NCBI RefSeq assembly: GCF_042660085.1
Contig: NZ_JBHSTI010000015.1
Location: 1-24,414 of the forward strand
Length of the DNA: 24,414 nucleotides
DNA from: Longivirga aurantiaca
Lineage (GTDB): Bacteria > Actinomycetota > Actinomycetes > S36-B12 > CAIYMF01
Reading direction: 5' to 3'
Shown: positions 4,481 to 24,190 of the stretch, one piece after another
Position numbering within the stretch: the first letter of the stretch is position 1
Layout of the letters: each line of letters opens with the position of its first letter
Notes under the pieces: generated by a model
Told to the model about the DNA's origin: nothing
What the model saw: the letters and a program-made list of their open reading frames with translations, nothing else
The model's database searches: none
Translations under genes and position numbers: made by a program

Positions 4481-4660
4481 GTGGCAGTTCGGCTAAAGGG
4501 ATCTGGCAGGCGGATCAGTCGTCGGTGCCTCGGTCCGTCCAGGACATGATCGTTCGATCTTGACTCGATCATCTGATCTAAGTCATTGTATGTCCTAATC
4601 AGGCATGGAAACACTGGGTCAAACTCGGAGGCTGGCATTCCACACGTCACGGGTATCCAG

Positions 4661-5673: not shown

Positions 5674-7500
5674 CTACGAGGGGCGCGATGCGTTACGGAT
5701 GGTGACGATTCGCACTGCAAGCTGCAGAGGAAGCCAGTCTTCCGCGGAGTCCAGGTCGAGCCCAGTCACGACCGTGATTCGCTCAAGGCGCTGTCGCAGC
5801 GTGTTTCGGTGAATGCCGAGTTCGTCGGCGGCGTGGCTTCCGTTGCCGCGGGATGAGAGATACACGTCGAGGGTGCTGAGGAGCTGGGACCCGCGACGCC
5901 GATCATATTCGAGCAGCTGGTGGAGCCGCATGACCGTCGGGTCGTGATCGAACGCGGGGTCCACCGCAACTCGGTAGAGGTGCATCTCGCCGGCCAGGTC
6001 GTCGTAGTGATTCACTGGAGAGTCGCCCACCTTTGCGCCGATCTCGAGTGCTTCGCTTGCCTCGCGAAGTGCTGTCGGAAGATCCGTGACCCGCAGGACC
6101 ATTCGACTTATCCCTGCTTCAAGCCGCACGCCCCACTTTTGCGCTAGATCGTCTGCGAGTTGTTGGATGTGTCCCTGCAGCCTGCGATCGCCGTCTGGCT
6201 TGGCTACCTCGACCAGCCCGTAGATCTGATTCAGCGTGACGTGAGTGATCGAACCCGGGTTGAATCCTCGAATCATGGTGACCGCTGATGCCGTCGCACG
6301 GCTGACGTCCGACGGCTGGGTCTTGTCGCCCTGCTTTGCAGAAACAACGACGCGGGCGCGGAGCAGCACCAGTGGTCTGGTGAGGTTCGCGCCTAGCGCA
6401 GTGGCTATCGACGCTGTCTGATCATCGACCAGGTTCCGGCCGAGGCGTTCGAATACGACCCGGCTCGACTGCTCTGTGCCGCCCCAACGACTGGACGGAT
6501 CTGTGAGGGCAAGGCCGAGCTGACGGCCGATGATGGACATCAGGTCATGGTCTTCGTCTGAGAATCGGTGACGTCGGTAGCAACTCAAGAAACCGAGGCT
6601 GTCGTCGCCGACGACGAGCGGAACAGACGCGACGTTGCCCAGCCGCTCGGGTAGTTCCGAGTTCAAGTACCGCAGAAGTCGCGTTGACGCAGGGCTTGCG
6701 TCAACGGCGGTGCCCGCCTGCCCGGACGTCAGCGTCGCGACATCGTCTAGCACATCGGAACGGAATGGCGCGATCGCCCTGACGATCGGCTCCCCGGTCT
6801 CGGGGTCCGCAAGCACCAACACGCATAGGTCTGCCTCAAGTACTGCGACAGCCGCGTTGGCTACCGTGCCGAGGACTTCGAACGCCGGTCGGAGGGAGCA
6901 CAAGGTGGTGCTCAACTCGGACAGCGTATCGAGCATGTGCGCCCTTCGGGCGACTGCGCCACCGTTCGACGCGTTGCTGATTACTCCAGCGAGGAGGGCA
7001 GCCAGCTCCTTTGCTACCGCAAGATGAGAGTCTTCGAAGCGGTTCGGGGTCCTCGCATTTAGAGAGAGAACCCCAATGAGAACTTGGCCGCCGCGAAGAA
7101 GCGGGATCTTGGCTGTGGATTCGTAGTTCTCCTCGTTCAGTTCAGGAAAGAGTTGGAAGTGCGGGTCCTTCGCTGGCGCCCTGTTTACGACAACCGCTCG
7201 TTGCCGAAGTGCGGCGAGCCCGCTGAGACCTTGCCCGAGGTGCACTTCCACTCGATGAAGGTAACTCTTCTCGACCCCCTCGGTAGCCGCCGTCAGGACC
7301 AGCGTCTCCCGTTGCGAATCCCAAAGATGTAGGAAGGCCCCATCGGCATCGGTTGCGTCACGAACGATCTCCACGACACGTCCGAAGAAGTCGGCGAGCT
7401 CCAGGTTCATCCCCACTGCAAAGACGATCTGCGACAACGCGACGCGCAGGCGTTCCGCGCGATCTAGAGCCCGACGAATGTCACCGACGTCGGTGACCAC
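5674..7500 (-). CDS. GAF-GAF-PucR-type transcriptional regulator
   Basis: Two GAF-like segments are present (...DADGAFLHLWDSQRETLVLTAA...GQGLSGLAALRQRAVVVNRAPAKDPHF...VLIGVLSLNARTPNRFED; and ...LEADLCVLVLADPETGEPIV...SLGFLSCYRRHRFSDEDHDLM). The C-terminal PucR HTH is AADELGIHRNTLRQRLERITVVTGLDLDSAEDWLPLQLAVRIV. The start is uncertain. GTG 7500 is preceded by GGAG; GTG 7548 is also possible; the ORF stays open to GTG 7809. Confidence 0.8.
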   Translation of the reverse strand: MVTDVGDIRRALDRAERLRVALSQIVFAVGMNLELADFFGRVVEIVRDATDADGAFLHLWDSQRETLVLTAATEGVEKSYLHRVEVHLGQGLSGLAALRQRAVVVNRAPAKDPHFQLFPELNEENYESTAKIPLLRGGQVLIGVLSLNARTPNRFEDSHLAVAKELAALLAGVISNASNGGAVARRAHMLDTLSELSTTLCSLRPAFEVLGTVANAAVAVLEADLCVLVLADPETGEPIVRAIAPFRSDVLDDVATLTSGQAGTAVDASPASTRLLRYLNSELPERLGNVASVPLVVGDDSLGFLSCYRRHRFSDEDHDLMSIIGRQLGLALTDPSSRWGGTEQSSRVVFERLGRNLVDDQTASIATALGANLTRPLVLLRARVVVSAKQGDKTQPSDVSRATASAVTMIRGFNPGSITHVTLNQIYGLVEVAKPDGDRRLQGHIQQLADDLAQKWGVRLEAGISRMVLRVTDLPTALREASEALEIGAKVGDSPVNHYDDLAGEMHLYRVAVDPAFDHDPTVMRLHQLLEYDRRRGSQLLSTLDVYLSSRGNGSHAADELGIHRNTLRQRLERITVVTGLDLDSAEDWLPLQLAVRIVTIRNASRPS

Positions 7501-8135
7501 GGGCTCCGTGGCCTGACCGCTTTCAACATCAGAGTTCAGTGCACCCACCTCACAAACATCGGGGAGACAGCACCATGTCCTCGCGGGAGTATGGAAGTCA
7601 ACACGAGTGCCGAGTTCCACAGTTGATGGGCGCACGGCGGTCCCCGGGTCTATCCGATTCTGAACCGTTTCGGCTCCTCCGCCGGCATTAGCATTCGAGA
7701 ACGGACCGACGTAGGTGAACACTTCGCCGGTCAGCGTCGCTCGATGGACCCCGCCCTTCAGTTGCGACGATGACCACGGCCTTCGTGATCGGACCCGGCT
7801 GCGGCACACGCTCCGGGACCATTCGCGCAGTGCGGTCCTTCACTTCACGATCGATCGCGGATTGGCCTCGACTGCTGCAGTGTCCCTATACGAGCCGCCA
7901 GCTATTGCAAGCTCGCCTCGAATGCTCAGTCAATCTGCGGTTGCGCTCGACGACTCGCACGGTGACGCGAGAAAGTAGTTGACCGCCTAATCGCGATCTC
8001 AATGGTCCCGGAAGTCGACGACTGTTGTCCCGCGTTGCTGATGCCCGGCAGTAGCGCTTCCACTGAAACTAGGCATCGCTAATCGCGCGTCCCACAAGCC
8101 GCCGCGGCCACCGCGGGTGACGCGTTCCAACAGCT

Positions 8136-9494
8136 TCAGCCGTCTGTCGAGATGAAGATGTTCTTTAGTTCGGTGTATCCGTCGAGGGCCGTCATTCCGA
8201 GCTCCCGTCCCATGCCCGACTGCTTGAACCCACCGAATGGAGCCTGTAGGCGGACTGAGGTACTGGAATTCACCGAAATCGAGCCAGTCTCGAGTCCGCG
8301 CGAGACGCGGATCGCTCTGCCCACGTCACGGGTCCAGACCGATCCCGACAAGCCGAATATCGTGTCGTTGGCGAGAGTGATTGCATCGGCCTCGTCATCG
8401 AACGGGATGATGGTCACGATGGGTCCAAAGATCTCTTCTCGCACAACTCGATGATCGCGAGGCGGATTCAGGACGATGTGGGGTGACATCCAATGGCCGG
8501 GCCCCGTGGGTGCCTCCGTCGGCGCGACCACATCGAGCTCGATATCGAGAAATGACTCGACCTTGTCAAGGTGGTTCCCCGAGACCAAAGGGCCCATCGT
8601 TGTGGCCGCATCGAGCGGATCTCCCACCACCATGGATCCCGTAGCCGACGTGAACAGTTTGACGAACTCGTCGTATGCCCCGCGTTCGACAAGAATTCGA
8701 CTTCGGGCACAGCAGTCTTGACCCGAGTTGCCGAACACTGCGCCTGTGCTCTCGACCGCCACCCTTTCCAGGTCGGCGTCCTCGAAAATGACCGCCGCGG
8801 ACTTCCCACCCAGCTCGAGGGTGACGCGCTTCATGGTACCTGCCGCAGAGCGCATGATCGTCTGACCAGTCTCGGTTGAACCAGTGAAGCTGATCTTACC
8901 TATCCCGGGGTGCTCCGTTAGTGCAGTGCCGACGATGGGGCCCTTTCCGAGGACAACCTGGAATAACCCGTCGGGAAGGTCAGCATTTGAGATCAGTTCC
9001 CCGAACTTGCAGATGGATAGCGGGGTTATTTCTGCCGGCTTTACAATCACAGAATTGCCGCAGGCAATGGCGGCTGCCACATTCCAGGCGGCAATCGCCA
9101 ACGGAAAGTTCCACGGTGCGATGACGGCTACCACTCCTATCGGCTCATGCACAGTGAAGTCCATGCCGCCGTCCACTGGGATGGTCTGGCCGAAGAACTT
9201 GTCGATGGCGCCGGCGTAGTAATCGAATGTGTCGGCCACCATGGACACCTCGGCTCGACTGGCTCCGATCGGTTTGCCGACATTCGACGTCTCAATGCGG
9301 GCAAGCTCTTCCGAGTTTGCCCGCACTAGTTCGGCGATACGTCGCAGCCCATCGATGCGGCTGCGTTGAGGCAGTCGGGCCCACGTCCGCTGGGCACGCT
9401 GGGCGCGTTCGACAACATCGTCAACCAACGCAAGCGGCGTGTCCCGAAGCTCAGCGATCACGGCGAGGGTGGAAGGGTTGACGATCAGACTCAT
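8136..9494 (-). CDS. NAD(P)+-dependent aldehyde dehydrogenase
   Basis: 452-aa ORF with the Glu motif VTLELGGKSA, the catalytic Cys motif FGNSGQDCCARSR, plus FTGSTETG, EEIFGPIV and PFGGFKQSGMGRE. ATG at 9492-9494 has a GAGG-like sequence upstream. Confidence 0.9.
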   Translation of the reverse strand: MSLIVNPSTLAVIAELRDTPLALVDDVVERAQRAQRTWARLPQRSRIDGLRRIAELVRANSEELARIETSNVGKPIGASRAEVSMVADTFDYYAGAIDKFFGQTIPVDGGMDFTVHEPIGVVAVIAPWNFPLAIAAWNVAAAIACGNSVIVKPAEITPLSICKFGELISNADLPDGLFQVVLGKGPIVGTALTEHPGIGKISFTGSTETGQTIMRSAAGTMKRVTLELGGKSAAVIFEDADLERVAVESTGAVFGNSGQDCCARSRILVERGAYDEFVKLFTSATGSMVVGDPLDAATTMGPLVSGNHLDKVESFLDIELDVVAPTEAPTGPGHWMSPHIVLNPPRDHRVVREEIFGPIVTIIPFDDEADAITLANDTIFGLSGSVWTRDVGRAIRVSRGLETGSISVNSSTSVRLQAPFGGFKQSGMGRELGMTALDGYTELKNIFISTDG

Positions 9495-10118
9495 AGGGGA
9501 ACCTCGGCGCTAGTGGGGCGTTCGGCAGTGTCGAGAGCAAACCTGTCATTCGCGATCGCACGTGCAGACCGTCTGTTCGCCCCGCGACTTGGCGTTGACG
9601 CTGGATACCCTCCACGGCTCGGAGGTCAGGAACAATGTTCGGACTGCACATTGCGACGACCGACAGACGCCACCTCGCCCACTGAACCGGCGTTGGCTGA
9701 GCGGTTGAATAGGCTCAATCAGCGTGCCGAACGAGTTCGGTGGTGGCGTCCCTGGCATTGCTTGTAGGTTTCGTGTCCGGCAAGCCGATGGTCGGCGGTC
9801 TCGCATGAGTTTCGCACGCTCGTGGCGCAAACTCCCGAATAGCCCGACCATAGACCGGCCTCACACGGCAGCTGCACAGGTCCCGCGATCGAGACGCGGC
9901 ACCGTGCCCATCGTCTTGGTCGGGAATCGTCTGGAGACTCGATGCCAGTGGCATTCGGACTGGACGGGTCGTGACGAGCCAGGGAGCCATGACCAGGCGC
10001 CGTTCCTTGGGGAGTGGGTTGTCCACTTCGTGACCAACATCGGGCGACAGGACAACGCCACGCACGCCAGCGTTCCGCGTTCACCGCGTCGCCCCAATGA
10101 ATGCCGGTGCCGAGTGAG

Positions 10119-10172
10119 CCTACAAAACTAGGCCATGAATGACCCTTGTAGTCAGGCCATAATATGCCCTAC
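10119..10172 (+). promoter_or_regulatory. Candidate promoter/operator of the mutase operon
   Basis: This is the only AT-rich patch in the 738-bp divergent intergenic region. TAATAT (10160-10165) fits an actinobacterial TANNNT -10 box. It is flanked by the inverted half-sites CCTACAA (10119-10125), CTTGTAG (10145-10151) and CCTAC (10168-10172), and by the direct repeat AGGCCAT (10130- and 10154-). A strong RBS GAGGAGGAG (10219-10227) precedes GTG 10233. No -35 box is convincing. Confidence 0.3.
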
Positions 10173-10232
10173 TGTTCCATCCACATTGGATCCGACCCGA
10201 GGCATCCAAGGTTCGGCTGAGGAGGAGCGAGC

Positions 10233-10634
10233 GTGTTTGACGTCAGGACCACAGGTGACGAGGCCTTGATCCGTCTTCGGCTCGCACCCAGCGACGCTCG
10301 GTACGCGGGCAACCTCGTCGCCGGCTCCAAAGCGCTGGAGATCTTTGCCGATCTCGAGACCGAGTTGTCACTGCGCGAAGGCGGCGATGAGGGACTTTGC
10401 GTCTCATACAGCTCGGTCAACTTCGCTGCCCCCCTGCGCGTTGGGGACTTCGTCGAAGGCATCGCGAGGGTCGTGGAGCGCGGCAACACCAGCCGCAAGG
10501 TCGAGGCTCGCCTCTACAAAGTGCTGAGCGTGGACGAGAAGGGCCTGTTGATCGATCAGGACGGTCCGGTGTTGGCCGTCTCCGCGGTGGCGACGATCGT
10601 CGTCGGCCGAGGAACTGCTGCGCAGGAGTCCTGA
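10233..10634 (+). CDS. Hot-dog fold protein resembling 3-aminobutyryl-CoA ammonia-lyase (Kal) / beta-alanyl-CoA ammonia-lyase
   Basis: The 133-aa product contains ...RLRLAPSDARYAGNLVAGSKALEIFADLETELSLREGGDEGLCVSYSSVNFAAPLRVGDFVEGIARVVERGNTSRKVEARLYKV... The Y-x-G-x-LV-x-G, GDEGL, F-x-AP-(L/V)-x-x-GD-(F/Y) and GNTSRK stretches match my recollection of Kal-family proteins. GTG start with a strong RBS. The stop is 1 nt before the ligase start. Confidence 0.65.
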   Translation: MFDVRTTGDEALIRLRLAPSDARYAGNLVAGSKALEIFADLETELSLREGGDEGLCVSYSSVNFAAPLRVGDFVEGIARVVERGNTSRKVEARLYKVLSVDEKGLLIDQDGPVLAVSAVATIVVGRGTAAQES

Positions 10635-10635
10635 C

Positions 10636-12126
10636 GTGTCAACTTTCGGGAGCACCCTCGTTTCGTGGATCGGGGCGGTTGCGCGGGCACACCCGAACGA
10701 TCCGGCCTTGATCTTCGAAGGTGACACGTGGACATACAAGGACCTCTGGCATCGTTCAGCCTCGATCTCCCGCGAGCTATTGGCGAAAGGCCTTCGCCGC
10801 GGAGAATCCGTTGGGCTCGTCGGAGCAAACGAAGCGGTGTACGTCGCGACCTACTTCGGGATCATGCGTGCCGGCGCAACGGCGGTTCCCCTGAACGCCA
10901 TGCTCGACGTCAAGTCGCTCCGCGAACAACTTGAGCTCGTCGAAGCCACCAGCGTCTTCGTCGGTCACGTCGCCGAGGGTGTTCGAGACGAGCTCGCTGA
11001 GTCCTTTCGAGTTCTCCCCATGCATGGCTCAGGCGCCGCTGTCAGCCGTTCCCAGCTACCGGCCGTTAGAACGAACACTCCGTGTTCGATCATGCTCACG
11101 AGCGGCTCCACCGGGAAGCCCAAGGGAGCTGTCCACACGCAAGGAACGATGCTGCACGCTGCGCTTCAACTGGGCTCCATGTTCCCATTCGGCCCTGGTC
11201 AGCGAGGTGTGGTCTTTCTCCCGCTGTACGCCTGTATCCCGGAGCAGGTCTTGCCGATGCTGTGCATGGGCGGCGCGTTGGAGATCCTGCCGCGATTCGA
11301 CATCGAGAGAATCGCGGACGCCTGCCTCCAGGCGACGACGTTTGATGCCGTTCCCACCGTGATGGGCCGGCTCATCGAGCACGCTCCCTTGGACAAGCTC
11401 GCTCACCTCGAATGGGTTCTGTTCGCATCTGAAGCGATGCCGACCGCCTTGATCAACCGGTGGTGGGAGGAACTCCCCAACGTGGAGACACATCAGTTCT
11501 ATGGGATGACCGAGATCCTCCCGCTCACGGCCGCAAGTCATCGAATGCTTCGTGCCGAACCGACGACCGTGGGTCGGGCTTTCCCGACCACCTCGATCCG
11601 AGTTCAAGCGACTGACGGCTTCGAGTCTCTCGATGGCAGCGGTGAATTGGTCGGGATGAGCCCCGCCCGAATGCTGGGCTACTACAACGACGATCCAGCG
11701 ACTGCTCGCGCGGTATCAACCACTGGGGGAATGCACACAGGCGACATCGGACGTATCGACGAGAACGGGTTCGTGTATCTCACGGGACGCCTGAAGGACA
11801 TCATCATCACGGGCGGCATCAATGTCTCGCCCGGCGAGATCGAGCACGTCGCTTGCCACCACCCGGACGTTCTCTCAGCGATCGTTGTCGGGCTCCAGAG
11901 TCAGCGGTGGGGCGAAACGCCCGTCGTCGTTGCCGTGGCGAAGCCTGGCCGTGACCTCTCAGCGGATGAACTTCTCCGATACTGCCGGAGCAATCTCGCT
12001 AGTTACAAGCGCCCGTCCGGAGCCGCTGTCGTAACGAGCCTCCCGACGACCGGCATTGGCAAGGCTGCAAAGGAATCAGTCAAGCAGATGATCATGGACG
12101 GGGTGATCCTGCTTGTTCACGCGTGA
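10636..12126 (+). CDS. AMP-forming acyl-CoA ligase (adenylate-forming superfamily)
   Basis: 496 aa with the AMP-binding motifs MLTSGSTGKPKGAVHT, FYGMTE, HTGDIGRIDENGFVYLTGRLKDII and the C-terminal YKRP. GGAG lies 7 nt before GTG 10636. Confidence 0.9.
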   Translation: MSTFGSTLVSWIGAVARAHPNDPALIFEGDTWTYKDLWHRSASISRELLAKGLRRGESVGLVGANEAVYVATYFGIMRAGATAVPLNAMLDVKSLREQLELVEATSVFVGHVAEGVRDELAESFRVLPMHGSGAAVSRSQLPAVRTNTPCSIMLTSGSTGKPKGAVHTQGTMLHAALQLGSMFPFGPGQRGVVFLPLYACIPEQVLPMLCMGGALEILPRFDIERIADACLQATTFDAVPTVMGRLIEHAPLDKLAHLEWVLFASEAMPTALINRWWEELPNVETHQFYGMTEILPLTAASHRMLRAEPTTVGRAFPTTSIRVQATDGFESLDGSGELVGMSPARMLGYYNDDPATARAVSTTGGMHTGDIGRIDENGFVYLTGRLKDIIITGGINVSPGEIEHVACHHPDVLSAIVVGLQSQRWGETPVVVAVAKPGRDLSADELLRYCRSNLASYKRPSGAAVVTSLPTTGIGKAAKESVKQMIMDGVILLVHA

Positions 12127-13042
12127 GAGCCTCGAGACCGTACTGTCGGATGGTCGAGCAGGACTGTGGGGGCCGCTCGCCCGGGCGATCACTCGTGTCG
12201 AAAACACTCCGCCCTGGGAGGTTTCGATCTCCCGAGGGCCTACTCCGACGCACATCGTCGGCATCACTGGCCCGCCCGGTGCCGGCAAGTCCACCCTGAC
12301 CGGTCGGCTCATCGCGGCCTATGCAGACGCGGGCCAGCGCGTCGCGGTTCTCGCGATCGACCCATCAAGCCCCCTGAGCGGTGGAGCCGTACTGGGGGAT
12401 CGCCTGCGGATGGAGACGCACCTCAATGGGCGACCCAACGTCTTCGTGCGCAGTCTCGCGAGCCGAGGGTCACATGGCGCGGTGGCCGGTGCGACCCGAA
12501 ACATCGCGCGACTCCTAGAATTGTCAGGTCTGTTCGACGTCATCTTGATCGAGACGGTGGGTGCTGGACAGACCGAGGTCGCGATCGTAGAGGTGGCCGA
12601 CACCGTCGTGTTAGTGACAGTGCCGGGCTTGGGTGACGCAGTGCAAACGATCAAGGCAGGCCTGATGGAGGTCGCTGACATGTTCATTGTGAACATGGCT
12701 GACCGACCGGGGGCAGCCGAAACTGCTCGCCACCTCCGTCTAGCGGCTGGCCGAGCAGGACTCGTCCTCCAAACCACGGCCCGTGATGGGATCGGTGTAG
12801 ATGAAGTTCGCACAGCCCTACAGAACCGATGGGCGGAGCTGGCGAACGAGGGGCGGTTGGACGAACTGAGGGCCCACAAGTGGGGCTCGGACGCGGCGTT
12901 GATCGCCGAGGCCTGGGTAGGTGCCTGCGCTCGGGAGATGCCGGTCGCTATCCGCGAGACGATGGTAGGAGCCGTCGAAGAGATCTTGATCGACGCGTCA
13001 AAGCGTTGGCAGTTACAACGGCAGGAGCACCGAAATGAGTGA
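12113..13042 (+). CDS. MeaB/ArgK-type G3E GTPase chaperone for a B12 mutase
   Basis: Walker A GITGPPGAGKST, then AIDPSSPLSGGAVLGDRLRM and IETVGAGQTE. The base-specificity motif reads NMAD (12692-12703) instead of NKxD. The TTG start overlaps the ligase by 14 nt; the stop overlaps the mutase ATG by 8 nt. Confidence 0.9.
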   Translation: MFTRESLETVLSDGRAGLWGPLARAITRVENTPPWEVSISRGPTPTHIVGITGPPGAGKSTLTGRLIAAYADAGQRVAVLAIDPSSPLSGGAVLGDRLRMETHLNGRPNVFVRSLASRGSHGAVAGATRNIARLLELSGLFDVILIETVGAGQTEVAIVEVADTVVLVTVPGLGDAVQTIKAGLMEVADMFIVNMADRPGAAETARHLRLAAGRAGLVLQTTARDGIGVDEVRTALQNRWAELANEGRLDELRAHKWGSDAALIAEAWVGACAREMPVAIRETMVGAVEEILIDASKRWQLQRQEHRNE

Positions 13043-14714
13043 CACCACATCCGCCAGCGATGCAAGCGTCGAGGCGTGGAAAAGGGAAACCCTAGCCGCT
13101 GACTACGAGCGCGTGCGCCCGCGTCGGGATCAGTACCAGACGCTGTCTGGAGCGGCGATCAATGACGTCTACACCCCTGGAGACCTTGGTGGCTTTGACC
13201 ACGACCGTGACCTAGGCCTTCCGGGCCAGTACCCGTACACGCGAGGCGTCCACGCAAGCATGTTCCGCGGCCGGCCCTGGACAATTCGTCAGGTTGCAGG
13301 CTTCGGTCAGGCCGAAGACACCAACAACCGATACAAGTATCTGCTCAAGACAGGACAGACGGGCTTGTCTACGGACTTCGACCTGCCGACCCTGTTGGGC
13401 TACGACTCGGATCACGAGGTCTTCCGTCGTGAGGTCGGGAAGATCGGTGTCGCGATTGACACGGTTGTGGACATGCACGCTCTGTTCGATGAGATCCCTC
13501 TGGACCAGATCTCGACGTCCATGACCATCAACCCGACCGCGGCGATCTTGCTAGCGATGTATCGCGTTGTCGGCGACGAACGCGGCTTCTCCGGGGACGC
13601 ACTCACTGGGACGACGCAGAACGACATCCTCAAGGAGTACACGGCGCAGAACGAGTTCATCTTCCCCCCTCTTCCGGCGGTTGAGCTAGTTGTGGACACG
13701 ATGGAGTACGGCGCCCAAGTGATGCCTCGCTTCAATCCTCTCAATGCCTGCGGATACCACATCAGAGAAGCGGGCGCGACCGCGGTGGAAGAGGTTGGGC
13801 TGACAATCAGCGCGGCGCTGTGCTACCTGGAGCACGCAGTGGCGCGCGGCATCGACGTTGATCGGCTTGCACCGCGCGTGTCGTTCTTCTGGGACGTCCA
13901 CAACAACTTCTTCGAGGAGGCGGCCAAGCTGCGCGCAGCCCGTCGGCTTTGGGCACGGCTCATGCGCGAGCGGCTGAATTGCAAGAATCCCAAGTCGTGG
14001 CTCATGCGGGCCCATTGTCAGACCGCGGGGGTGTCGTTGACGGCGCAGCAGCCGTACAACAACGTGGCACGCACAGCTTTGCAGGCCATGGCAGCCGTAC
14101 TCGGAGGCACACAGTCTCTGCACACCAACTCACTCGACGAGGCTCTGTCGATCCCTTCGGAGAGTGCCATCAAGATTGCGGTGAGGACGCAGCAGATCAT
14201 CCTGCACGAGACGGGTGTGGCAGACGTGGTGGATCCCTTGGGCGGCTCCTACTACGTGGAGGCCCTGACCACTCAGATCGAACAGGACGCCATGGCGCTG
14301 ATCGAGCGGATCGATGCCATGGGAGGCATGATCAACGCTGTCGAGTCCGGGTATGCCGGCCAGCTGATCGCCGACTCCGCCTGGGAGCAGCAGGTCAAGT
14401 TGGAGAGCAACGATTCGATTCAGGTCGGGGTGAACGACTTCGTCGACGAGACGGAGGGTCAGCAGATCGAGATTGACCGCCCTGTCCCCGGCGTCATGGA
14501 ACGTCAGATGCAGCGGCTCTCGGACGTGAAGCGCACACGTGAGCAGAGGCGCGTATCGGAGACACTCCGCGCTATCGAGACTGCCGCGCCGAACCTGCAC
14601 AACAACCTGATGCCCCTCATCGAGGACGCGGTGCGCGCGCGCGCCTCGGTGGGTGAGATCTCTGACGTCCTGCGTGGCACCTGGGGCCAGTACCAGCCCT
14701 CCACCGTCTTCTAG
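13035..14714 (+). CDS. B12-dependent acyl-CoA mutase, substrate-binding (TIM-barrel) large subunit, HcmA/IcmA-like
   Basis: 559 aa with PGQYPYTRGVHASMFRGRPWTIRQVAGFG, GLSTDFDLPTLLGYDSD, GTTQNDILKEYTAQNEFIFPP and ACGYHIREAGATAVEE. There is no fused B12 domain, as in the split ICM/HCM enzymes. Confidence 0.9.
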   Translation: MSDTTSASDASVEAWKRETLAADYERVRPRRDQYQTLSGAAINDVYTPGDLGGFDHDRDLGLPGQYPYTRGVHASMFRGRPWTIRQVAGFGQAEDTNNRYKYLLKTGQTGLSTDFDLPTLLGYDSDHEVFRREVGKIGVAIDTVVDMHALFDEIPLDQISTSMTINPTAAILLAMYRVVGDERGFSGDALTGTTQNDILKEYTAQNEFIFPPLPAVELVVDTMEYGAQVMPRFNPLNACGYHIREAGATAVEEVGLTISAALCYLEHAVARGIDVDRLAPRVSFFWDVHNNFFEEAAKLRAARRLWARLMRERLNCKNPKSWLMRAHCQTAGVSLTAQQPYNNVARTALQAMAAVLGGTQSLHTNSLDEALSIPSESAIKIAVRTQQIILHETGVADVVDPLGGSYYVEALTTQIEQDAMALIERIDAMGGMINAVESGYAGQLIADSAWEQQVKLESNDSIQVGVNDFVDETEGQQIEIDRPVPGVMERQMQRLSDVKRTREQRRVSETLRAIETAAPNLHNNLMPLIEDAVRARASVGEISDVLRGTWGQYQPSTVF

Positions 14715-14737
14715 AATGGAACGAGGAGATCACAGTC

Positions 14738-15175
14738 ATGGCTAATTCCCCCGCAACGAACTCTGCACCCCTCAAGGTCGTGGTGGCCAAACCTGGGCTC
14801 GATGGTCACGACCGTGGGGCCAAGGTCGTGGCACGCGCGCTGCGTGACTCAGGCATGGAAGTCGTCTACACGGGCATCTACCAGACCCCGGAGTCGATCA
14901 TGCGCGCCGTCATCCAGGAGGACGCCGACGTCCTTGGTCTGTCCAGCCTCTCCGGTGCCCATCTGGATTATGCGGAGGAGCTCGGTCAGCTACTGCGGGC
15001 CAACGACAGAGCTGACGTGCTGTTCGTTGCGGGCGGAACCATTCCTCCAGAGGATGCAGTCAAGTTGAAGGAGTACGGAGTGCACGAGGTCTTCGGCCCC
15101 GGAACGCCGACGACTGTTCTGGTCGAGTACGTCACCACTTACGCAAGGAATGTGTCTGCCATCCCAGTTCAGTAG
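14738..15175 (+). CDS. Acyl-CoA mutase small subunit, cobalamin-binding domain
   Basis: 145 aa with KVVVAKPGLDGHDRGAKVVARAL (DxHxxG), LSSLSG (SxL) and VAGGTIP (GG). RBS GAGGAG at 14723-14728. Confidence 0.9.
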   Translation: MANSPATNSAPLKVVVAKPGLDGHDRGAKVVARALRDSGMEVVYTGIYQTPESIMRAVIQEDADVLGLSSLSGAHLDYAEELGQLLRANDRADVLFVAGGTIPPEDAVKLKEYGVHEVFGPGTPTTVLVEYVTTYARNVSAIPVQ

Positions 15176-15320
15176 CACCCCAGTTCTCGCAGGCCTACAC
15201 ACGATCCTCGCCGGGCGCTCTCATTGTGCGGATGTAATCGCCAGATTCGACGCGTATTCAAGCGAAGCCAAGTCGTCCAATGAGTTCACCTGCGCGGCAG
15301 GTTGGAGACGGAGCAGTAAA

Positions 15321-15899
15321 GTGGTCCACTTGACGCGCATATACACGCGCACTGGGGATGGCGGGCAAACCAGCCTCGGTGACATGAGCAAGACCAGCAA
15401 GTTGGATACCCGACTCCTTGCATACGCTGACGTTGACGAGGCGAACAGCCAAATCGGATTTGCGATCGCGTTGGGCGGGCTCGACGCGGACGTCGTGGAT
15501 GTACTGCGACAGGTCCAGAACGAGATGTTCGACGTCGGGGCTGACCTTTGCTGCCCCGTCGCAAAAGACCCGGCTCATCCGCCATTGAGAATCGAACCTG
15601 ACTACATCCGCAGACTGGAGCGCTGGTGCGATCACTACAACGCCCAGCTGCCAGATCTACGCTCCTTCATCTTGAGGGGGGGAGCTCCTTCTGCCGCCGC
15701 CGTGCACATCGCCTGTACCGTGACGCGACGCGCAGAGCGCTCGGCGTGGGCGGCCATCCAGGATCACGGCCCCACGATGAATGTTCTGACTGCGAAGTAC
15801 CTGAACCGCCTCAGTGATCTACTTTTCGTCCTGGCGCGGTATGCCAACCGAGACCTAGGGGATGTCCTCTGGGAGCCGGGGGGAGAGCGATCTACGTGA
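15321..15899 (+). CDS. PduO-type ATP:cob(I)alamin adenosyltransferase
   Basis: VVHLTRIYTRTGDGGQTSLGD...LLAYADVDEANSQIG...FILRGG...HIACTVTRRAERS...YLNRLSDLLFVLAR. GTG 15321 has GGAG 7 nt upstream. The frame is open from ATG 15150, but that 57-aa extension shows no family similarity. Confidence 0.85.
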   Translation: MVHLTRIYTRTGDGGQTSLGDMSKTSKLDTRLLAYADVDEANSQIGFAIALGGLDADVVDVLRQVQNEMFDVGADLCCPVAKDPAHPPLRIEPDYIRRLERWCDHYNAQLPDLRSFILRGGAPSAAAVHIACTVTRRAERSAWAAIQDHGPTMNVLTAKYLNRLSDLLFVLARYANRDLGDVLWEPGGERST

Positions 15900-16070
15900 A
15901 GGCCGGTCGCGGGTCCTTCGACGTCCCGCTTGTCTGTGGCTCGCCGGGCAACGGGGCGTTGAATGGGTTGGCCTCTGAGAGCCACAGCCAGGTCGGCGAG
16001 ATGGTCAGGTGTACCGCTACCGCTGCCTGGACGAGGCATTCTCCTTCGGGCCGCCACCCAGGTGGCTTTC

Positions 16071-16949
16071 GTGCTTGACGGGGCGGAGGGCATCCGACGC
16101 GTCGGCGTCGTCGGCAGCGGAATGATGGGATCCGGCATCGCTGAGGTCTGCGCCCGTGCCGGATACAAGGTCAGCGTGTACGACCTCACGCCCGAGTCCG
16201 CCGAGGCTGGTCTCGAGCGAATCCAGCGGTCGCTCCTCCGGGCCGAGAGAGCAGGAAAGGTCACCACCGAAGCTCGGATGTCAGCTCTGGGCCGGATCAA
16301 TGTGCATACGGACCTATGGCGCCTCGAGGGCAGTGACCTTGTCATCGAGGCGGCGACCGAGAACGAGCAGCTGAAGCTGGAGATTTTTCGGAAGCTAGAC
16401 GAGGTCGTCACGTCCACCGATGCCATTCTCGCCAGCAACACGTCCTCGATTCCGATCATGAACATCGCCATGGCGACAAGCCGTCCTGAGCACGTTATCG
16501 GAGTTCACTTCTTCAATCCGGCGACGATTCTCGATCTGGTTGAGATCGTGCCCTCACTCCTCACGGCTCCAAAGGTGATCGACCGAGCGAGCATTTTCGT
16601 GACTGCTGCCCTGAGCAAGACCGTCATCCGGGCGCCGGATCGCGCTGGGTTCATTGTGAACTTCCTTATCGTCCCCTACCTGCTTGCAGCCATACGCATG
16701 TACGAATCGGGCTTCGCCGCAGCAGAGGATGTTGACCGCGGAATGGTGTTGGGTTGCGGTCATCCGATGGGCCCGCTTCGGCTGGCGGATCTCATCGGCC
16801 TCGACACCGTAAGCGCCATTGCGCATGCGATGTACCTGGAGCACAAGGAGCCGTTGTACTCGTCGCCGCCTCTGCTTCAGCGCATGGTTTCTGCCGGTCT
16901 GGTCGGACGGAAGGTTGGTCGCGGCTTCTATGCCTACCCAGAGCCTTAG
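16071..16949 (+). CDS. 3-hydroxybutyryl-CoA / 3-hydroxyacyl-CoA dehydrogenase (NAD-dependent, Hbd/PaaH type)
   Basis: RRVGVVGSGMMGSGIAEVCARAG (Rossmann fold), EAATENEQLKLEIF, ASNTSS, GVHFFNP, DRAGFIVN, GHPMGPLRLADLIGLD, GRKVGRGFY. The start is uncertain: GTG 16071 or 16062 give a normal N-terminus, and the ORF is open from ATG 15963. Confidence 0.85.
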   Translation: MLDGAEGIRRVGVVGSGMMGSGIAEVCARAGYKVSVYDLTPESAEAGLERIQRSLLRAERAGKVTTEARMSALGRINVHTDLWRLEGSDLVIEAATENEQLKLEIFRKLDEVVTSTDAILASNTSSIPIMNIAMATSRPEHVIGVHFFNPATILDLVEIVPSLLTAPKVIDRASIFVTAALSKTVIRAPDRAGFIVNFLIVPYLLAAIRMYESGFAAAEDVDRGMVLGCGHPMGPLRLADLIGLDTVSAIAHAMYLEHKEPLYSSPPLLQRMVSAGLVGRKVGRGFYAYPEP

Positions 16950-18016: not shown

Positions 18017-18848
18017 CTAGGTCGGGTTGTCGTCGGTGGTGATGCGGGTGCTGGGGAGGCTGTCGAGGTCTCGTCCGCGCACGCGGTAGCTGGCGCCTTT
18101 GAGGGTCAGGACGTCGGCGTGGTGGACGAGGCGGTCGATCATGGCTGCGGCGACGACGTCATTCGCCGAACACCTCGCCCCACCGTCCGAAGGGCTTGTC
18201 GCTGGTCACCGATCAGCGAGGCTCGTTCGTAGCGGGACGAGACGAGCTGGAAGAAAACAGGTTCGCAGCTTCGGGCTCGAACGGGATGTAGCCGACCTCG
18301 TCGACGATCAGCAGCGGGTAGCGGCCCAGGCGTCGCAGTTCGTCCTGCAGGCGGCCGGCGTGGTGGGCGTCGGCGAGGCGGGCGACCCTTTCCGCGGCGG
18401 TCGCGAACAGGACCCGGTGCCCGGCCTGGCAGGCCCGGATCCCGAGGCCGATCGCGAGGTGGGTCTTCCCGGTCCCGGGCGGTCCGAGGAACACGACGTT
18501 CTCCCGTGCGGCGACGAAGTCCAGGGTCCCGAGGTGGGCGATCTGGTCGCGTTTGGGGGACCGGGCATGGTCGAAGTCGAACTCCTCGAGGGCCTTCCGT
18601 GACGGGAACCTCGCAGCTCTCACCCTGCCTTCGCCGCCGTGGGATTCCCGGGCGGAGACCTCGCGTTGCAGGCAGGCGGCGAGGAACTCCTCATGGGTCC
18701 AGGACTCCGCCCGTGCCCGCTCGGCGAGCCGGTCGACTGCTTCACGCAGCGACGGGGCCTTGAGCGCGCGGGTCAGGAACACCAGCTCAGCGCTGACATC
18801 ACGCCCGGTCCGAGGTGTCGCCGCGGTGGCGGTTCGCGCGGCCATCAC
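18017..18848 (-). pseudogene. istB: IstB-like ATPase with multiple frameshifts
   Basis: The 211-aa ORF carries Walker A GPPGTGKT and Walker B LLIVDEVG but ends prematurely (..ANLFSSSSSRPATNEPR*). The expected continuation is found only by changing frame three times: LFFQLVSSRYERASLI, then VTSDKPFGRWGEVFG, then DVVAAAMIDRLVHHADVLTLKGASYRVRGRDLDSLPSTRITTDDNPT*. Shifts lie near 18240, 18215 and 18165; the original stop is at 18017-18019. Confidence 0.85.
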
Positions 18849-20083
18849 GCGACCGCCTCGGTCAGCCCGAACACGGTGTCGTAGCCGGACAGGGGCCGCT
18901 GCTCGACCTCACCGGTGACCTACGGGACAGCGACCCGGGACCGGGTCTGGCGCATCACGGCCGCCGCGGCGGCGTGCTCGGGGTCGGTGATGGACTGGTG
19001 GTCCGCCCAAGCGCGGGCATGGTCCGCGACGACCTTCCCACCGCAGGTCACCACCACCCGGTCCAGGTCAGCGATGACCTCGACGCGGCGACCGATCACC
19101 GAGGGGTGCACGGAGTAGTCGTTGGAGTCGATGCGGACGTAGTGGTCGCGCGGCAGCCGCACCGAAGCCCACCACCCGATCACCGGCGCCACCGGTGGCA
19201 GGGCGAGCATCGCGGCACGGTCCGCTTCCCACCGTTGCACCGGGCGGCAGCCCAGAGCCCGATGCCGGCGCTGGTTGGCGCGGGTGGTCAGCCAGGAGCT
19301 GAACTGCTCGTTGAAGTCCTGTGGCGAGGTGAACGACCGCCCGGGCAGGAACGACGTCTCGTAGTAGCCGTTGCCCCGTTCGACCAGGCCCTTGGCCTCG
19401 GGGTCGTTCGGCTTGCACTGGTGCACCGCGATGCCCAGCACCCCGCGGAACACCTCGATGTCCTCCGCGAGCTTGGGCTTCCCCGAGCGCCACGACCCGA
19501 CCGCGCCCTCGTTGTCCCAGACCAGCTCGCGCGGGACAGCGCCGATCCGCTCGAGCAGCTCCCAGTGCCCCGCGATCAGGTCCGGGGCCTGCCGCGCGGG
19601 GATCATCAACCCGTGCGACATCCGCGAGTAACCCGCGACTGTCACCAGCACCGGCAGACGACCGACCTGGCCATGCCCGAGCGGGATGTCCACCGGCGGG
19701 AACCACAGGTCGCACTGCATCCGATGCCCGGGCTCATACGAGGTCCGCGACGCCGGGTCCGGCGGCAGATAGAACGGGCGCAGCACCCAGACCCGGTCCT
19801 TGAGGATCGTGATCGAGTGCGACCAGCCGATCCGCTCCGCGATCACCGTCGCCGGCATCGTCGGAGTCGCCGCCAGCAGCTCCCGGATCCGCGGCTCGAC
19901 CGCATCGACCAGCGACCCCCGCGGAGGACGTTCGTACTTCGGCGGCGCGTCCCGCCGCAACGCCGCCCTCACCGTGTTCTTCGAGCACCCCAACCTCGAA
20001 GCGATCACCTTGATCGGCATCCCCTCGCTGCGGTGCAACCGACGAATCTCGGCCCAGTCCTCCATGCTCTTCACACTCCACAC
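18845..20083 (-). pseudogene. istA: IstA IS21 transposase with an in-frame premature TAG
   Basis: The 387-aa ORF has an N-terminal HTH (MEDWAEIRRLHRSEGMPIKVIASRLGCSKNTVRAAL) and a DDE core (QCDLW..., VWDNEGAV..., KPNDPEAKGLVERGNGY). It stops at TAG 18920-18922. The same frame continues 24 codons (VTGEVEQRPLSGYDTVFGLTEAVA) to TGA 18845-18847, which overlaps the istB ATG. Confidence 0.85.
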
Positions 20084-20092
20084 GATCTCGGA

Positions 20093-20131
20093 GGGGGTCA
20101 GTTTTCGGACGACGCCAGGGGGTCAGTTTTC
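20093..20131. repeat. Subterminal direct repeats of the IS21 left end (putative IstA binding sites)
   Basis: GGGGGTCAGTTTTC occurs twice, at 20093-20106 and 20118-20131, between the istA start and the element tip. This is typical of the multi-repeat ends of IS21-family elements. Confidence 0.6.
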
Positions 20132-20147
20132 ACCCGTCGTCGACACA

Positions 20148-20615
20148 GCTTGCTGTTGGCGACCATCTTCGCGACCTTAGGACGGCGCGCTCGACGCTCG
20201 GCGTGCCACTGCGCCACCGTCGCCCGATACTCCGCCTGCGACGAGCGGCTCGACGCGCCCCGACGCAGCTCTCGCGAGATCGTCGACGGATCACGACCCA
20301 GACGCCGAGCGACTCGCGAGCGCTGACCTTCTGGGCATGCCAGATCGCGATGTCCTCCCGCTCAGCGAACGACAGGTAACGGCCCGACACCTCGACAGGC
20401 AGACAAGGATTCACCCCGCCAGCGTGACGAAACCAGCGATAGCCGACCGGCTCGGACACGCCAGCCTCACTCGCAGCCACGTCGGTCTTCACGCCGCGAG
20501 CAACAGCCGCCCAGAACCTGACCCGATCCTCCCGCCACGCCACCGACGGGCGGCCCGGTGACGCGATCTGCCCTCGATAGGCACGCACCCGCTTCTGACG
20601 CGGGGTTGTTCCCAT
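20148..20615 (-). pseudogene. IS30-family transposase, N-terminal fragment with a frameshift
   Basis: From ATG 20613-20615: MGTTPRQKRVRAYRGQIASPGRPSVAWREDRVRFWAAVARGVKTDVAASEAGVSEPVGYRWFRHAGGVNP...YLSFAEREDIAIWHAQKVSARE. The expected (I)ARRLGRDPSTISRELRRGASSRSSQAEYRATVAQWHAERRARRPKVAKMVANSKL is read only after a -1 slip near 20325. The fragment ends at the IS21 tip. About 200 aa of the catalytic core are absent between this fragment and the C-terminal one. Confidence 0.75.
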
Positions 20616-20937
20616 CGCCCCACCGCTCCATCGAGGTGTTGCGACGACGAGTTGAATCCACCCTGAATACCTGGCTGATTGTGCACGACTGCACCTGTTC
20701 GCGTCGTGTAGGCAGGCACAGTTGTCCATTGATCCGCGGTCCAGGCTCGCGAATGATCTGAGGGCAGCCACGTGCTGGGTGCCGCCGGTTGGCGAACGCG
20801 GTCTGGGAAGCGTCACGCGAAGGAGTCCTTCCCAGTGTCACGGAGCCACAGCCACGCTGTCGAACTACGAAGGCAATGCAGCAGTCCGCGCGCAAGCGAT
20901 ATGAACACGCTCAGGACGATTCGGACCAAGGAGTCTC

Positions 20938-21726
20938 ATGCCAGCCCTCGCACTCACGTCGCGTCTCGCAGACCGCACTGCCGTAGTGACGGGAGCCGCT
21001 TCCGGTAACGGTCTCGGGATCGCTCAGAGGCTCCTCGCGGAAGGTGCGTCGGTCGTCTTCGTCGATCGTGACGCCGCGACGCTCAGCGAGGTTGTCCCGA
21101 ACGGAGATCAGAAGGCACTGGCTGTCGTCGCTGACGTCACCGATGCCGACAGCCTTCACGACATGGTCGAGTCCGTGATCGAGGCGTTTGGGTCTCTGGA
21201 CGTTCTCGTCAACAACGCCGGCATCGTGCGCTTCTCCGACTTCGACGACCTCGGTCTCGCTGAGTGGGAAGAGGTATTTCGGGTGAATTCAACCGGAGCA
21301 TTCCTGGCGGCGAAGGCCGCCGTCCCGGCGATGAAGAAGTCCCTCGCCAGCCGTGCCGGCACCGGCGCGATCGTGAACATCACGTCAACGGAAGCCCATG
21401 TAGTTCTCGCAAGCTCCGGCCACCCTCAGGTTCACTACAACGCCTCCAAGGGTGCCCTACACATGCTCAACCAAGGGCTCGCCATTGAACTGGGCTCAGA
21501 CCGAATTCGCGTGAACGCTGTTGCACCAGGCATCGTCGAGACGCCTTTCACGGCTCGAGCGATGCAGAACGAGAAGCTGCTGAACTGGTATCTCGAACGA
21601 ATCCCGCTAGGCCGCGTGGCGAAGCCCCAGGACGTAGCTGCAGCGGTCGCCTACCTTGCCTCGGAGGATGCCTCCTACGTCACTGGTACGACGATCTTCG
21701 TCGATGGGGGATGGACCGCACAGTAA
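20938..21726 (+). CDS. Short-chain dehydrogenase/reductase (classical SDR)
   Basis: VVTGAASGNGLG (TGxxxGxG), NNAG, the ITSTEA serine, YNASK (YxxxK) and PGIVETP. AAGGAG RBS before ATG 20938. Confidence 0.9.
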   Translation: MPALALTSRLADRTAVVTGAASGNGLGIAQRLLAEGASVVFVDRDAATLSEVVPNGDQKALAVVADVTDADSLHDMVESVIEAFGSLDVLVNNAGIVRFSDFDDLGLAEWEEVFRVNSTGAFLAAKAAVPAMKKSLASRAGTGAIVNITSTEAHVVLASSGHPQVHYNASKGALHMLNQGLAIELGSDRIRVNAVAPGIVETPFTARAMQNEKLLNWYLERIPLGRVAKPQDVAAAVAYLASEDASYVTGTTIFVDGGWTAQ

Positions 21727-24187: not shown

Positions 24188-24190
24188 ACG

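Follow-up and report, generated by a model that had tools for sequence, protein, structure and literature searches.

Adenosylcobalamin (AdoCbl)-dependent acyl-CoA mutases swap the thioester carbon of their substrate with a vicinal hydrogen (PMC2847961), and an operonic hcl ligase gene is a hallmark of the clusters that encode 2-hydroxyisobutyryl-CoA mutase (HCM) (PMC7176365). Here, we describe an operon of seven intact, co-directional genes at positions 10233-16949 of the + strand of a complete contig of 24,414 bp from Longivirga aurantiaca (Actinomycetota); the whole contig is hereafter called the window. As in the HCM system, a split AdoCbl mutase is encoded in the window together with its own ligase, a chaperone resembling MeaB, an adenosyltransferase of the PduO type, a 3-hydroxybutyryl-CoA dehydrogenase (Hbd) and a GntR regulator, but the operon opens with a gene for a hot-dog protein of the Kal/Acl ammonia-lyase family. 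We consider it probable that the operon specifies a catabolic route by which 2-aminoisobutyrate (Aib) would be converted, via Aib-CoA and 3-aminobutyryl-CoA, to crotonyl-CoA plus NH3 and then to acetoacetyl-CoA; related α-methyl α-amino acids are probably handled as well.

Aib has no α-hydrogen and is, therefore, closed to ordinary transaminases, dehydrogenases and oxidases. We know of two routes for its use, one involving a Rhodococcus hydroxylase and the other 2,2-dialkylglycine decarboxylase (DGD), the classical Aib enzyme, which carries out a decarboxylation-dependent transamination with loss of one carbon and formation of acetone. The DGD of Burkholderia cepacia (1dgd in the Protein Data Bank, PDB) has as its substrate the very compound predicted here, but this pyridoxal phosphate enzyme forms acetone, CO2 and alanine, whereas the proposed route would keep the four carbons as acetoacetyl-CoA and free NH3. 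In the degradation of β-valine by Pseudomonas sp. SBV1, a CoA ligase (BvaA) and the ammonia lyases BvaB1 and BvaB2, which depend on CoA, handle an amine on a tertiary carbon (PMC4619459). That pathway resembles the proposed one in dealing with a non-transaminable amino acid, in its activation by a CoA ligase and in its CoA-dependent deamination; however, the BvaB lyases are members of the crotonase superfamily and BvaA is PaaK-like, whereas the lyase in the window has a hot-dog fold. Moreover, β-valine is already a β-amino acid and needs no mutase, while the proposed route would use one.

The operon and its Kal-like first gene

All seven genes occur where a sequence-only reading of this DNA had placed them and belong to the families that it had named. 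The first (10233-10634; 133 amino acids; Pfam 4HBT, NCBIfam Lys_ferment_KAL) encodes the Kal/Acl-family hot-dog protein, a predicted 3-aminobutyryl-CoA ammonia-lyase, and the second (10636-12126; 496 amino acids; Pfam AMP-binding and AMP-binding_C) a FadD/MenE-like, AMP-forming acyl-CoA ligase, which is the predicted 2-aminoisobutyrate-CoA ligase. They are followed by the gene for a MeaB-type G-protein chaperone (12113-13042; 309 amino acids; Pfam MeaB, PF03308, 226 bits), which scores 237.7 bits with TIGR00750, slightly under the cutoff of 240.75. The large, substrate-barrel subunit of the acyl-CoA mutase (13035-14714; 559 amino acids) matches MM_CoA_mutase (PF01642) over its full length with 674.5 bits, and its score of 690.5 bits with TIGR00641 (cutoff 303.8) places it in the acyl-CoA mutase family. 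The B12-binding small subunit (14738-15175; 145 amino acids; Pfam B12-binding, PF02310, 91.6 bits; TIGR00640, 151.3 bits, cutoff 57.45) carries the DxHxxG base-off/His-on motif in the form DGHDRG (D22-G27; nt 14801-14818). The last two genes specify a PduO-type ATP:cob(I)alamin adenosyltransferase (15321-15899; TIGR00636, 158.1 bits, cutoff 108.45) and Hbd (16062-16949; 3HCDH_N and 3HCDH; NF005875, 433 bits, cutoff 319).

The translational coupling of the first four genes, also proposed earlier, can be read directly at all three junctions: the hot-dog and ligase genes are joined by TGA-c-GTG (10632-10638), the MeaB gene starts with a TTG at 12113 and overlaps the ligase gene by 14 nt (12113-12126), and the large-subunit gene overlaps the MeaB gene by 8 nt (ATGAGTGA; 13035-13042). 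Shine-Dalgarno sequences are extant 5′ of the GTG start of the Kal-like gene (GAGGAGG) and of the small-subunit start (GAGGAG). The frames of the last two genes are open from 15150 and 15963, respectively, and the TIGR00636 domain begins at residue 64 of the long adenosyltransferase frame; in both cases, translation probably starts later than the first possible start codon, at GTG 15321 for the adenosyltransferase and at GTG 16062 or 16071 for Hbd. Such later starts leave gaps of about 145 and about 165 nt, and the tight packing is, therefore, limited to the first five genes.

The hot-dog protein had been taken for Kal-like rather than for a thioesterase, and the family searches bear this out. 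Pfam assigns it to the 4HBT thioesterase superfamily only; in NCBIfam, the Kal model NF052388 (Lys_ferment_KAL) matches residues 10-124 with an E-value of 8.6e-30 (103.6 bits), while the YciA thioesterase model reaches only 0.0088. Its top PDB match is 4mtu, the β-alanyl-CoA:ammonia lyase (Acl2) of Clostridium propionicum (E 1.9e-11), and over residues 10-93, it is 49% identical to the Kal of Fusobacterium, the gene of which adjoins those for Kce, Kdd and lysine 2,3-aminomutase (KamA), all above their equivalog cutoffs. The hot-dog fold is common to the three proteins, as are the motifs DA.Y.G.L.G, TEL, GDEGL, F.AP and GDF.E. On this evidence, we assign the protein to the Kal/Acl family and not to the thioesterases.

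To our knowledge, β-aminoacyl-CoAs are the only substrates of the Kal/Acl lyases. A mutase operating upstream of such a lyase would, therefore, by the chemistry of the acyl-CoA mutases, need an α-branched α-aminoacyl-CoA as its input. A literature search for the catalytic mechanism of Kal/Acl yielded nothing useful. In lysine fermentation, the substrate of Kal stems from the cleavage of 3-keto-5-aminohexanoate, whereas that of the window lyase would come from the mutase, and the window protein is at home in aerobic Actinomycetota, without kce, kdd and kamA genes.

In some metagenomic proteins (P0071, P0074, P0078, P0079, P0085, P0094 and P0110), a RidA/YjgF domain (PF01042) is fused to the Kal-like domain, and in locus L039, such a RidA-Kal fusion gene (10001-10696) stands first, ahead of the ligase, MeaB and mutase genes of the core. 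Enamines and imines are hydrolysed by RidA proteins, and the fusion can thus be seen as a hint of amino chemistry.

The mutase clade in comparison with HCM

A scan with the large subunit against one genome per species yielded 16 loci at 74-90% identity, in Nocardioides, Haloechinothrix, Jiangella, Sphaerisporangium, Dactylosporangium, Streptomyces, Nonomuraea and metagenome-assembled genomes (MAGs) of Solirubrobacterales; inside the clade as a whole, identity is 74-91%. As references for HCM, we used the loci of Methylibium petroleiphilum PM1, Xanthobacter Py2 and Mycobacterium (Mycolicibacterium) ELW1. Substrate specificity in HcmA presumably resides in Ile90, Asp117 and Gln208, residues that we confirmed in the PM1, Py2 and ELW1 sequences. 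The window mutase has Val87 (nt 13293-13295), Asp114 (nt 13374-13376) and Gln205 (nt 13647-13649) at these positions, and this Val/Asp/Gln signature is invariant in 20 of 20 clade sequences. It deviates from the Ile/Asp/Gln of all three HCM references at one position and matches at two, the Asp and Gln being shared with the HCM of Aquincola tertiaricarbonis, PM1 and ELW1. Methylmalonyl-CoA mutase (MCM) sequences exhibit Tyr/Ala/Arg at the aligned positions, and sequences from Deinococcus and Planctomycetales the Phe/Ala/Gln that is typical of isobutyryl-CoA mutase (ICM)-like proteins. With Val and Gln in place of Tyr89 and Arg207, and 627 bits with NF006944 (threshold 876), the window enzyme does not classify as an MCM, nor as ICM or IcmF by its Val/Asp/Gln, its 280 bits with NF045497 (threshold 1500) and its unfused subunits.

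The best 150 hits of an HMMER search of 1.84 billion cluster representatives (clustered at 50%, by which the clade is collapsed into more distant representatives) were examined for the three positions, the search itself being exhaustive: none has Val/Asp/Gln, and two have Ile/Asp/Gln. The highest-scoring representatives are of the Phe/Ala/Gln and Tyr/Ala/Arg types, the nearest clusters by score being ICM-like Phe/Ala/Gln at 51-57% identity. In a neighbour-joining tree with 200 bootstraps, the window clade and HCM are each monophyletic (100%), and their sister grouping is found in 14%. Judged by signature and phylogeny, the mutase constitutes a separate clade; common descent of the polar Asp shared with HCM is not supported at a sister bootstrap this low.

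Two further large subunits with Val/Asp/Gln came to light in related loci. One, 80% identical and followed by an S58 peptidase gene, is a second copy in a Nocardioides locus (L013, 18115-19767). The other, in a Solirubrobacterales MAG (L023, 18121-21633), is far more divergent (47% identical) and is accompanied by a small subunit of its own and a distant ligase; the signature may, thus, reach beyond the tight clade.

The ELW1 locus used for comparison has been analysed as ibc cluster 2 (PMC13188929). The gene order is small subunit, hcl, meaH, large subunit in all three HCM loci, as against hot-dog gene, ligase, MeaB, large subunit, small subunit in the window, and the hot-dog gene is absent from PM1, Py2 and ELW1 alike (0 of 3), in agreement with the earlier statement that no such locus with a Kal-type lyase was known. 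The window ligase is 17-23% identical to the PaaK-like HCL of these three strains and 61-78% identical to the ligases of the sister operons; HCL is not among its PDB matches at E ≤ 1e-30, and the two ligases are of different ANL subfamilies. The large subunit is 47-50% identical to HcmA (PM1), Xaut_5021 and IbcP, which are 62-80% identical among themselves; its top PDB match is 4r3u, HcmA, with 562 bits, as compared to 481 for human MCM. The genomic surroundings likewise differ, the neighbours being concerned with amines and amino acids in the operon family of the window and with the oxidation of methyl tert-butyl ether (MTBE) or isobutene in HCM. The predicted product is in both systems a 3-substituted butyryl-CoA.

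Ligase subfamily, gene order and hot-dog gene together indicate that the window operon is not a canonical locus for 2-hydroxyisobutyrate (2-HIBA). The conservative alternative of an ordinary 2-HIBA pathway, which the sequence-only reading had kept alongside its own proposal, is likewise weakened; what still speaks for it are the single Ile to Val change in the signature, homologues of 2-hydroxyisobutyryl-CoA lyase, of the 2-hydroxyacyl-CoA lyase (HACL) type, in related loci and the lack of a hydratase gene. An FDAV stretch in the window ligase was considered as the A4 Asp motif of non-ribosomal peptide synthetases and rejected: in register with the PheA sequence, it aligns before A5, and no amino-group-binding residue was assigned.

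Conserved core and nitrogen-related neighbours

About 20 independent loci share the five-gene core, made up of the Kal-like gene, the ligase, MeaB and the two mutase subunits, and the arrangement is, therefore, no chance juxtaposition. Of the 16 genome loci that the mutase query retrieved, 14 contain the core, in the same order in 13 and rearranged in Nocardioides; the loci retrieved by way of Kal-like homologues all contain it as far as the contigs extend, including the one with the RidA-Kal fusion. The co-occurrence of the Kal-like gene with this mutase clade, which the sequence-only reading had left to be checked, is thereby established for both sets of loci. In Sphaerisporangium and Dactylosporangium (L016 and L017), an orphan large subunit with Val/Asp/Gln (~9990-11680; 82% identical) is flanked by an HACL-like gene for a thiamine diphosphate (ThDP) enzyme, a GntR regulator and S9/DPP-IV peptidases, and the small subunit, MeaB, ligase and Kal-like genes are absent within 10 kb; masked sequence was rejected as the reason, there being no runs of N.

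Longivirga carries a second copy of the operon (L003, 6531-12058; Kal-like protein 79% and large subunit 91% identical), and related metagenome contigs do likewise (L004 and L005). In all three, this paralogous operon lies directly downstream of genes for a cytochrome P450, a ferredoxin and a ferredoxin reductase and of a PucR regulator gene. It has alcohol dehydrogenase, aldehyde dehydrogenase (ALDH) and Peptidase_C26 (C26) genes upstream and an amino-acid permease gene downstream, and is without Hbd. Near-identical DNA was not found in the PLSDB plasmids.

A class-III aminotransferase gene is located beside the core in eight related loci (L007, 6525-7835; L013, L019, L021, L022, L024, L026 and L027) and is missing from the window. 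NCBIfam returns generic class-III matches only for this protein, and its relation to DGD emerges from the PDB search, in which the L007 protein aligns with 1dgd over the full length (577 bits; E 2.7e-172), the next family scoring 230 bits. The other seven are 58-82% identical to the L007 protein, in which the motifs that hold Gln52, Trp138, Lys272 and Arg406 of DGD are conserved. By these matches, the recurrent aminotransferases are DGD of orthologue grade. If the operon does act on Aib, those genomes would possess a pair of distinct routes that consume Aib, encoded next to each other.

Other neighbours are also related to amines and peptides. Genes for a glutamine synthetase (GS)-like synthetase, a C26 hydrolase, an ALDH and a short-chain dehydrogenase (SDR) are located directly upstream of the core and co-directional with it in L041/L042 and L024/L026, where SDR, C26 and ALDH genes stand in the arrangement SDR-C26-ALDH. 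An S58 peptidase gene lies directly 3′ of the small-subunit gene in five loci, its product matching D-aminopeptidase (360 bits), DmpA and BapA, and is accompanied by genes for Opp-type binding proteins and S9 and M19 peptidases.

Kal-like genes unaccompanied by a mutase adjoin a CoA ligase gene in amine-catabolic clusters of plasmid pTC1 and of R. koreensis, the latter with flavin amine oxidase, alcohol dehydrogenase, ALDH and enoyl-CoA hydratase genes. In pTC1 of Paenarthrobacter aurescens TC1 (L001, 9001-10985), a CoA ligase gene overlaps a gene of the Kal family, which scores 127.9 bits with the Kal model and bears the annotation "putative Acyl-CoA hydrolase", and the cluster includes P450, C26 and ALDH genes. 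TC1 is an atrazine degrader, and the pTC1 region is an alkylamine-catabolic cluster; the presence of this gene suggests that the cluster includes an unrecognised aminoacyl-CoA deamination step.

The C26 hydrolases, SDR and ALDH that the window has in common with the γ-glutamylation pathways (Puu of E. coli, Ipu for isopropylamine, pTC1) make for a likeness to these systems, in which we presume the roles of such modules to be as assigned for Puu and Ipu; the GS-like synthetase and the P450-ferredoxin-ferredoxin reductase genes, however, are found only in sister loci of the window operon. The known γ-glutamylation pathways end in ordinary amino acids (γ-aminobutyrate (GABA), alanine), whereas here, the module is joined to a mutase/lyase operon.

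In the window, an aminoaldehyde-type ALDH gene (8136-9494, − strand; Pfam Aldedh, 519 bits) diverges from the operon, with an intergenic region of 738 bp (9495-10232) between it and the Kal-like gene. The best NCBIfam models for this ALDH are aminobutyraldehyde and betaine-aldehyde dehydrogenases, both below their cutoffs, and it is 76% identical to the ALDH beside the paralogous operon in L003. A scan for promoters and terminators gave nothing above shuffled sequences and no recognisable sigma-70 promoter in 9495-10232, and an Rfam scan of the window detected neither a cobalamin riboswitch nor another RNA family. Further upstream are genes for a PucR-type regulator (5674-7809, − strand; Pfam GAF_2, GAF and HTH_30), a 63% identical homologue of which flanks the paralogous operon in L003, and a GntR-family regulator (4586-5605, + strand; Pfam GntR). 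GntR homologues beside the core are 63-77% identical in actinomycete loci (e.g., L003, L007, L013-L015, L018-L020 and L028) and 44-49% in Solirubrobacterales; by this recurrence, the GntR regulator is a conserved companion of the operon family.

Downstream of the operon, an SDR gene (20938-21726, + strand; Pfam adh_short_C2, 219 bits), a candidate for the amino-alcohol oxidation step of the γ-glutamylation module, precedes the gene for a PuuD-like γ-glutamyl-amide hydrolase (21818-22594, + strand; Peptidase_C26, 214.9 bits; NF008471, E 1e-31, below cutoff). A second Peptidase_C26 homologue occurs at 1780-2538 (− strand; Pfam, 149.8 bits; NF008471, γ-glutamyl-GABA hydrolase, E 5.9e-22). An IS21-family element (18213-20083, − strand; Pfam IstB_IS21, Mu-transpos_C_2 and rve) consists of istB (18213-18848) and istA (18920-20083). 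The window is rich in mobile-element genes, all on the − strand (456-1211, 3346-4357, 18213-20083, 20130-20816 and 23667-24194): IS21 IstB occurs twice and IstA once, besides an HTH_38 protein, a ParE toxin and a DDE transposase that is divided between two frames and is probably a pseudogene. In a second PduO-type adenosyltransferase-like frame (22846-23367, − strand; 69% identical to the operon enzyme), homology continues for some 15 codons upstream of the earliest possible start codon, and the frame may be what is left, in truncated form, of a further copy of the operon. Altogether, the catabolic genes give the impression of belonging to a plasmid or island that has undergone rearrangement.

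Proposed route and rival readings

Every substrate and reaction of the route is predicted from the gene identities, family memberships, mutase clade, signature and conserved synteny observed above. The ligase would make 2-aminoisobutyryl-CoA, in which the AdoCbl mutase would shift the thioester carbon to a methyl carbon, yielding 3-aminobutyryl-CoA, with MeaB and the PduO adenosyltransferase loading and repairing the mutase. Asp114 would bind the amino (ammonium) group as Asp117 of HcmA binds the hydroxyl, and the product radical would be stabilised by the α-amino group, in parallel to the α-hydroxyalkyl radical of HCM. The Kal-like lyase would then remove NH3 to give crotonyl-CoA, a crotonase of the housekeeping type, not encoded here, would hydrate it, and Hbd would oxidise the resulting (S)-3-hydroxybutyryl-CoA to acetoacetyl-CoA. 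In Longivirga, Aib could originate from tert-butylamine or amines of the 2-amino-2-methylpropanol type, oxidised by way of γ-glutamylation (C26, SDR and ALDH, with the P450 in the paralogous locus), while in other genera, peptidases may free it from Aib-rich peptides. The route would be the nitrogen analogue of the conversion of tert-butanol via 2-methylpropane-1,2-diol to 2-HIBA and on through HCM. Comparative genomics, that is, the Kal family membership, the differences from HCM, the co-occurrence of the genes and the DGD-orthologue neighbours, thus speaks in favour of the candidate Aib route of the sequence-only reading.

Several observations weigh against this route. We know of no acyl-CoA mutase that takes an amino-substituted substrate, and free α-aminoacyl-CoA thioesters are chemically reactive. 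The substituents accepted in the mutase family were given in a 2010 review as H, CH3, OH and COOH only (PMC2847961). At the specificity positions, the mutase differs from HCM by Ile to Val alone. The hot-dog protein remains, at 103.6 bits, under the NCBIfam equivalog cutoff for Kal of 160 (the Fusobacterium Kal scores 196.6), and its C-terminal third is divergent from Kal. Its DARY (R23; nt 10299-10301) stands in place of the DAHY of Kal and Acl2; among 107 mutase-linked Kal-like homologues, at least 90% have Arg instead of the His, which is kept in the actinobacterial, mutase-free homologues of pTC1 and R. koreensis. This clade-specific change is at a probable active-site position, and it might be related to the stereochemistry of the mutase product. 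DGD, the GS-like synthetase, a P450 and a transporter are absent from the window, and the IS21 element separates its SDR and C26 genes from the operon.

The gene content also raises a difficulty, as ligase, mutase and Hbd without a hydratase make a complete set for 2-HIBA and an incomplete one for Aib; the window does not encode an enoyl-CoA hydratase, just as the sequence-only reading had cautioned. In MAG loci from Solirubrobacterales and relatives (L021, 4656-5717; L022, 11419-12840; L026, 14748-15974), the operon is flanked by ECH_2-type (HIBCH-like) genes, which may supply the missing hydratase step or act as 3-hydroxyacyl-CoA hydrolases; they occur near only a few MAG loci, and the gap, therefore, stays for the window. 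Furthermore, a ThDP enzyme encoded in seven related loci closely resembles the 2-hydroxyisobutyryl-CoA lyase of the actinobacterium Actinomycetospora (7pt1; 461 bits, next family 205) and is 43-48% identical to ThDP proteins in the HCM loci of PM1 and ELW1. Its gene is located at 12181-13884 in L013, between the small-subunit and ligase genes, at 13350-15035 in L015, at 13284-14939 in L020 and, on the − strand, at ~7900-9700 in L016/L017, 1020-2696 in L022 and 4143-5822 in L025; in Jiangella, a second ligase paralogue comes after it. This HACL-like enzyme may cleave the same aminoacyl-CoA in a branch that does without B12, as in 2-HIBA systems, or may link acetone to the mutase.

These observations are in part what a second lineage of HCM would lead one to expect, one that turns 2-hydroxyisobutyryl-CoA (2-HIB-CoA) into (S)-3-hydroxybutyryl-CoA for Hbd and for which the hot-dog protein is an accessory thioesterase or dehydratase. 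We think this chief rival unlikely but worth keeping in mind, HcmA being the best solved relative of the large subunit (562 bits), with its Asp and Gln kept and Ile to Val the sole change, and the path from 2-HIBA through ligase, mutase and Hbd requiring no hydratase. The 2-HIB-CoA would come from 2-HIBA via the ligase or from acetone (perhaps formed from Aib by DGD) and formyl-CoA by a reversed HACL-type ThDP lyase; the lyase homologues in seven related loci, with the L013 copy between small subunit and ligase, are in keeping with the latter. A combination of mutase and lyase has been proposed for acetone in Desulfococcus and offers a precedent (PMC7176365). However, most loci lack DGD, most lack the HACL-like gene, only L013 and L022 combine the two and the window has neither, and a source of formyl-CoA is not evident. 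Such a lineage would, moreover, assign no role to the Kal-family gene, which is translationally coupled and the least variable of the partners, and would leave the γ-glutamyl, aminopeptidase and permease neighbours unexplained. The ligase is unrelated to HCL at the subfamily level, and the mutase is as close to ICM-like sequences as to HCM, with a sister bootstrap of 14%.

The proximity to ICM-like sequences (nearest representatives by score, Phe/Ala/Gln, 51-57% identity) could also be taken to indicate a mutase for isobutyryl-, pivalyl- or another non-polar acyl-CoA, accompanied by a proof-reading thioesterase; Pfam gives the hot-dog protein the 4HBT thioesterase superfamily only, and one source annotates that of the paralogue (P0005) as a PaaI family thioesterase. 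Nevertheless, this is very improbable in our judgement: the Kal model outperforms the thioesterase models by 27 orders of magnitude, the invariant Asp where MCM and ICM-like proteins have Ala indicates a polar substituent, a thioesterase coupled ahead of a ligase would amount to a futile cycle, and the nitrogen-related context would go unexplained. No greater chance is given to alanine or D-alanine, freed by the S58 D-aminopeptidase, as the substrate, with the Kal-like protein as an Acl-type lyase (alanyl-CoA to β-alanyl-CoA to acrylyl-CoA and NH3), to which the 1,2-shift chemistry would apply equally. Among solved structures, a β-alanyl-CoA:ammonia lyase is indeed nearest to the hot-dog protein, the S58 neighbour is nearest to D-aminopeptidase and DmpA, and ECH_2 genes of the HIBCH type, a family that also acts on 3-hydroxypropionyl-CoA, flank some of the loci. 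But alanine is readily transaminated, a B12 route for it has no obvious benefit and acrylyl-CoA is toxic, while C4 tertiary substrates are what the DGD orthologue and an Hbd that falls into the 3-hydroxybutyryl-CoA subfamily (433 bits) would lead one to expect.

Open-access and bioRxiv full texts were found to contain no description of 2-aminoisobutyryl-CoA, of a mutase linked to 3-aminobutyryl-CoA or of a relevant degradation of tert-butylamine or aminoisobutyrate. While each component is of a familiar type, the clade, its predicted substrate class and the combination of mutase and lyase appear to be undescribed. We lean, if only slightly, towards viewing the Aib route as the first case of a carbon-skeleton acyl-CoA mutase working on an amino substrate (2-aminoisobutyryl-CoA to 3-aminobutyryl-CoA and back), coupled to a Kal-type lyase in an unrecognised pathway, widespread in Actinomycetota and Solirubrobacterales, that assimilates α,α-dialkyl amino acids from peptaibol-type peptides, tert-alkylamines and 2-amino-2-methylpropanol. 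If so, NH2 would join H, CH3, OH and COOH amongst the substituents accepted by acyl-CoA mutases, and the pathway would be an atom-for-atom mirror of that from MTBE via 2-HIBA to HCM. The reaction being reversible, it could give enzymatic access to Aib or chiral β-aminobutyrate from central metabolites, as HCM has been exploited for 2-HIBA. For the organisms themselves, the pathway would account for the use of Aib-rich fungal peptaibols by soil actinobacteria and for that of amines on a tertiary carbon, among them the industrial solvent 2-amino-2-methylpropanol and tert-butylamine, which terbuthylazine-type herbicides release.

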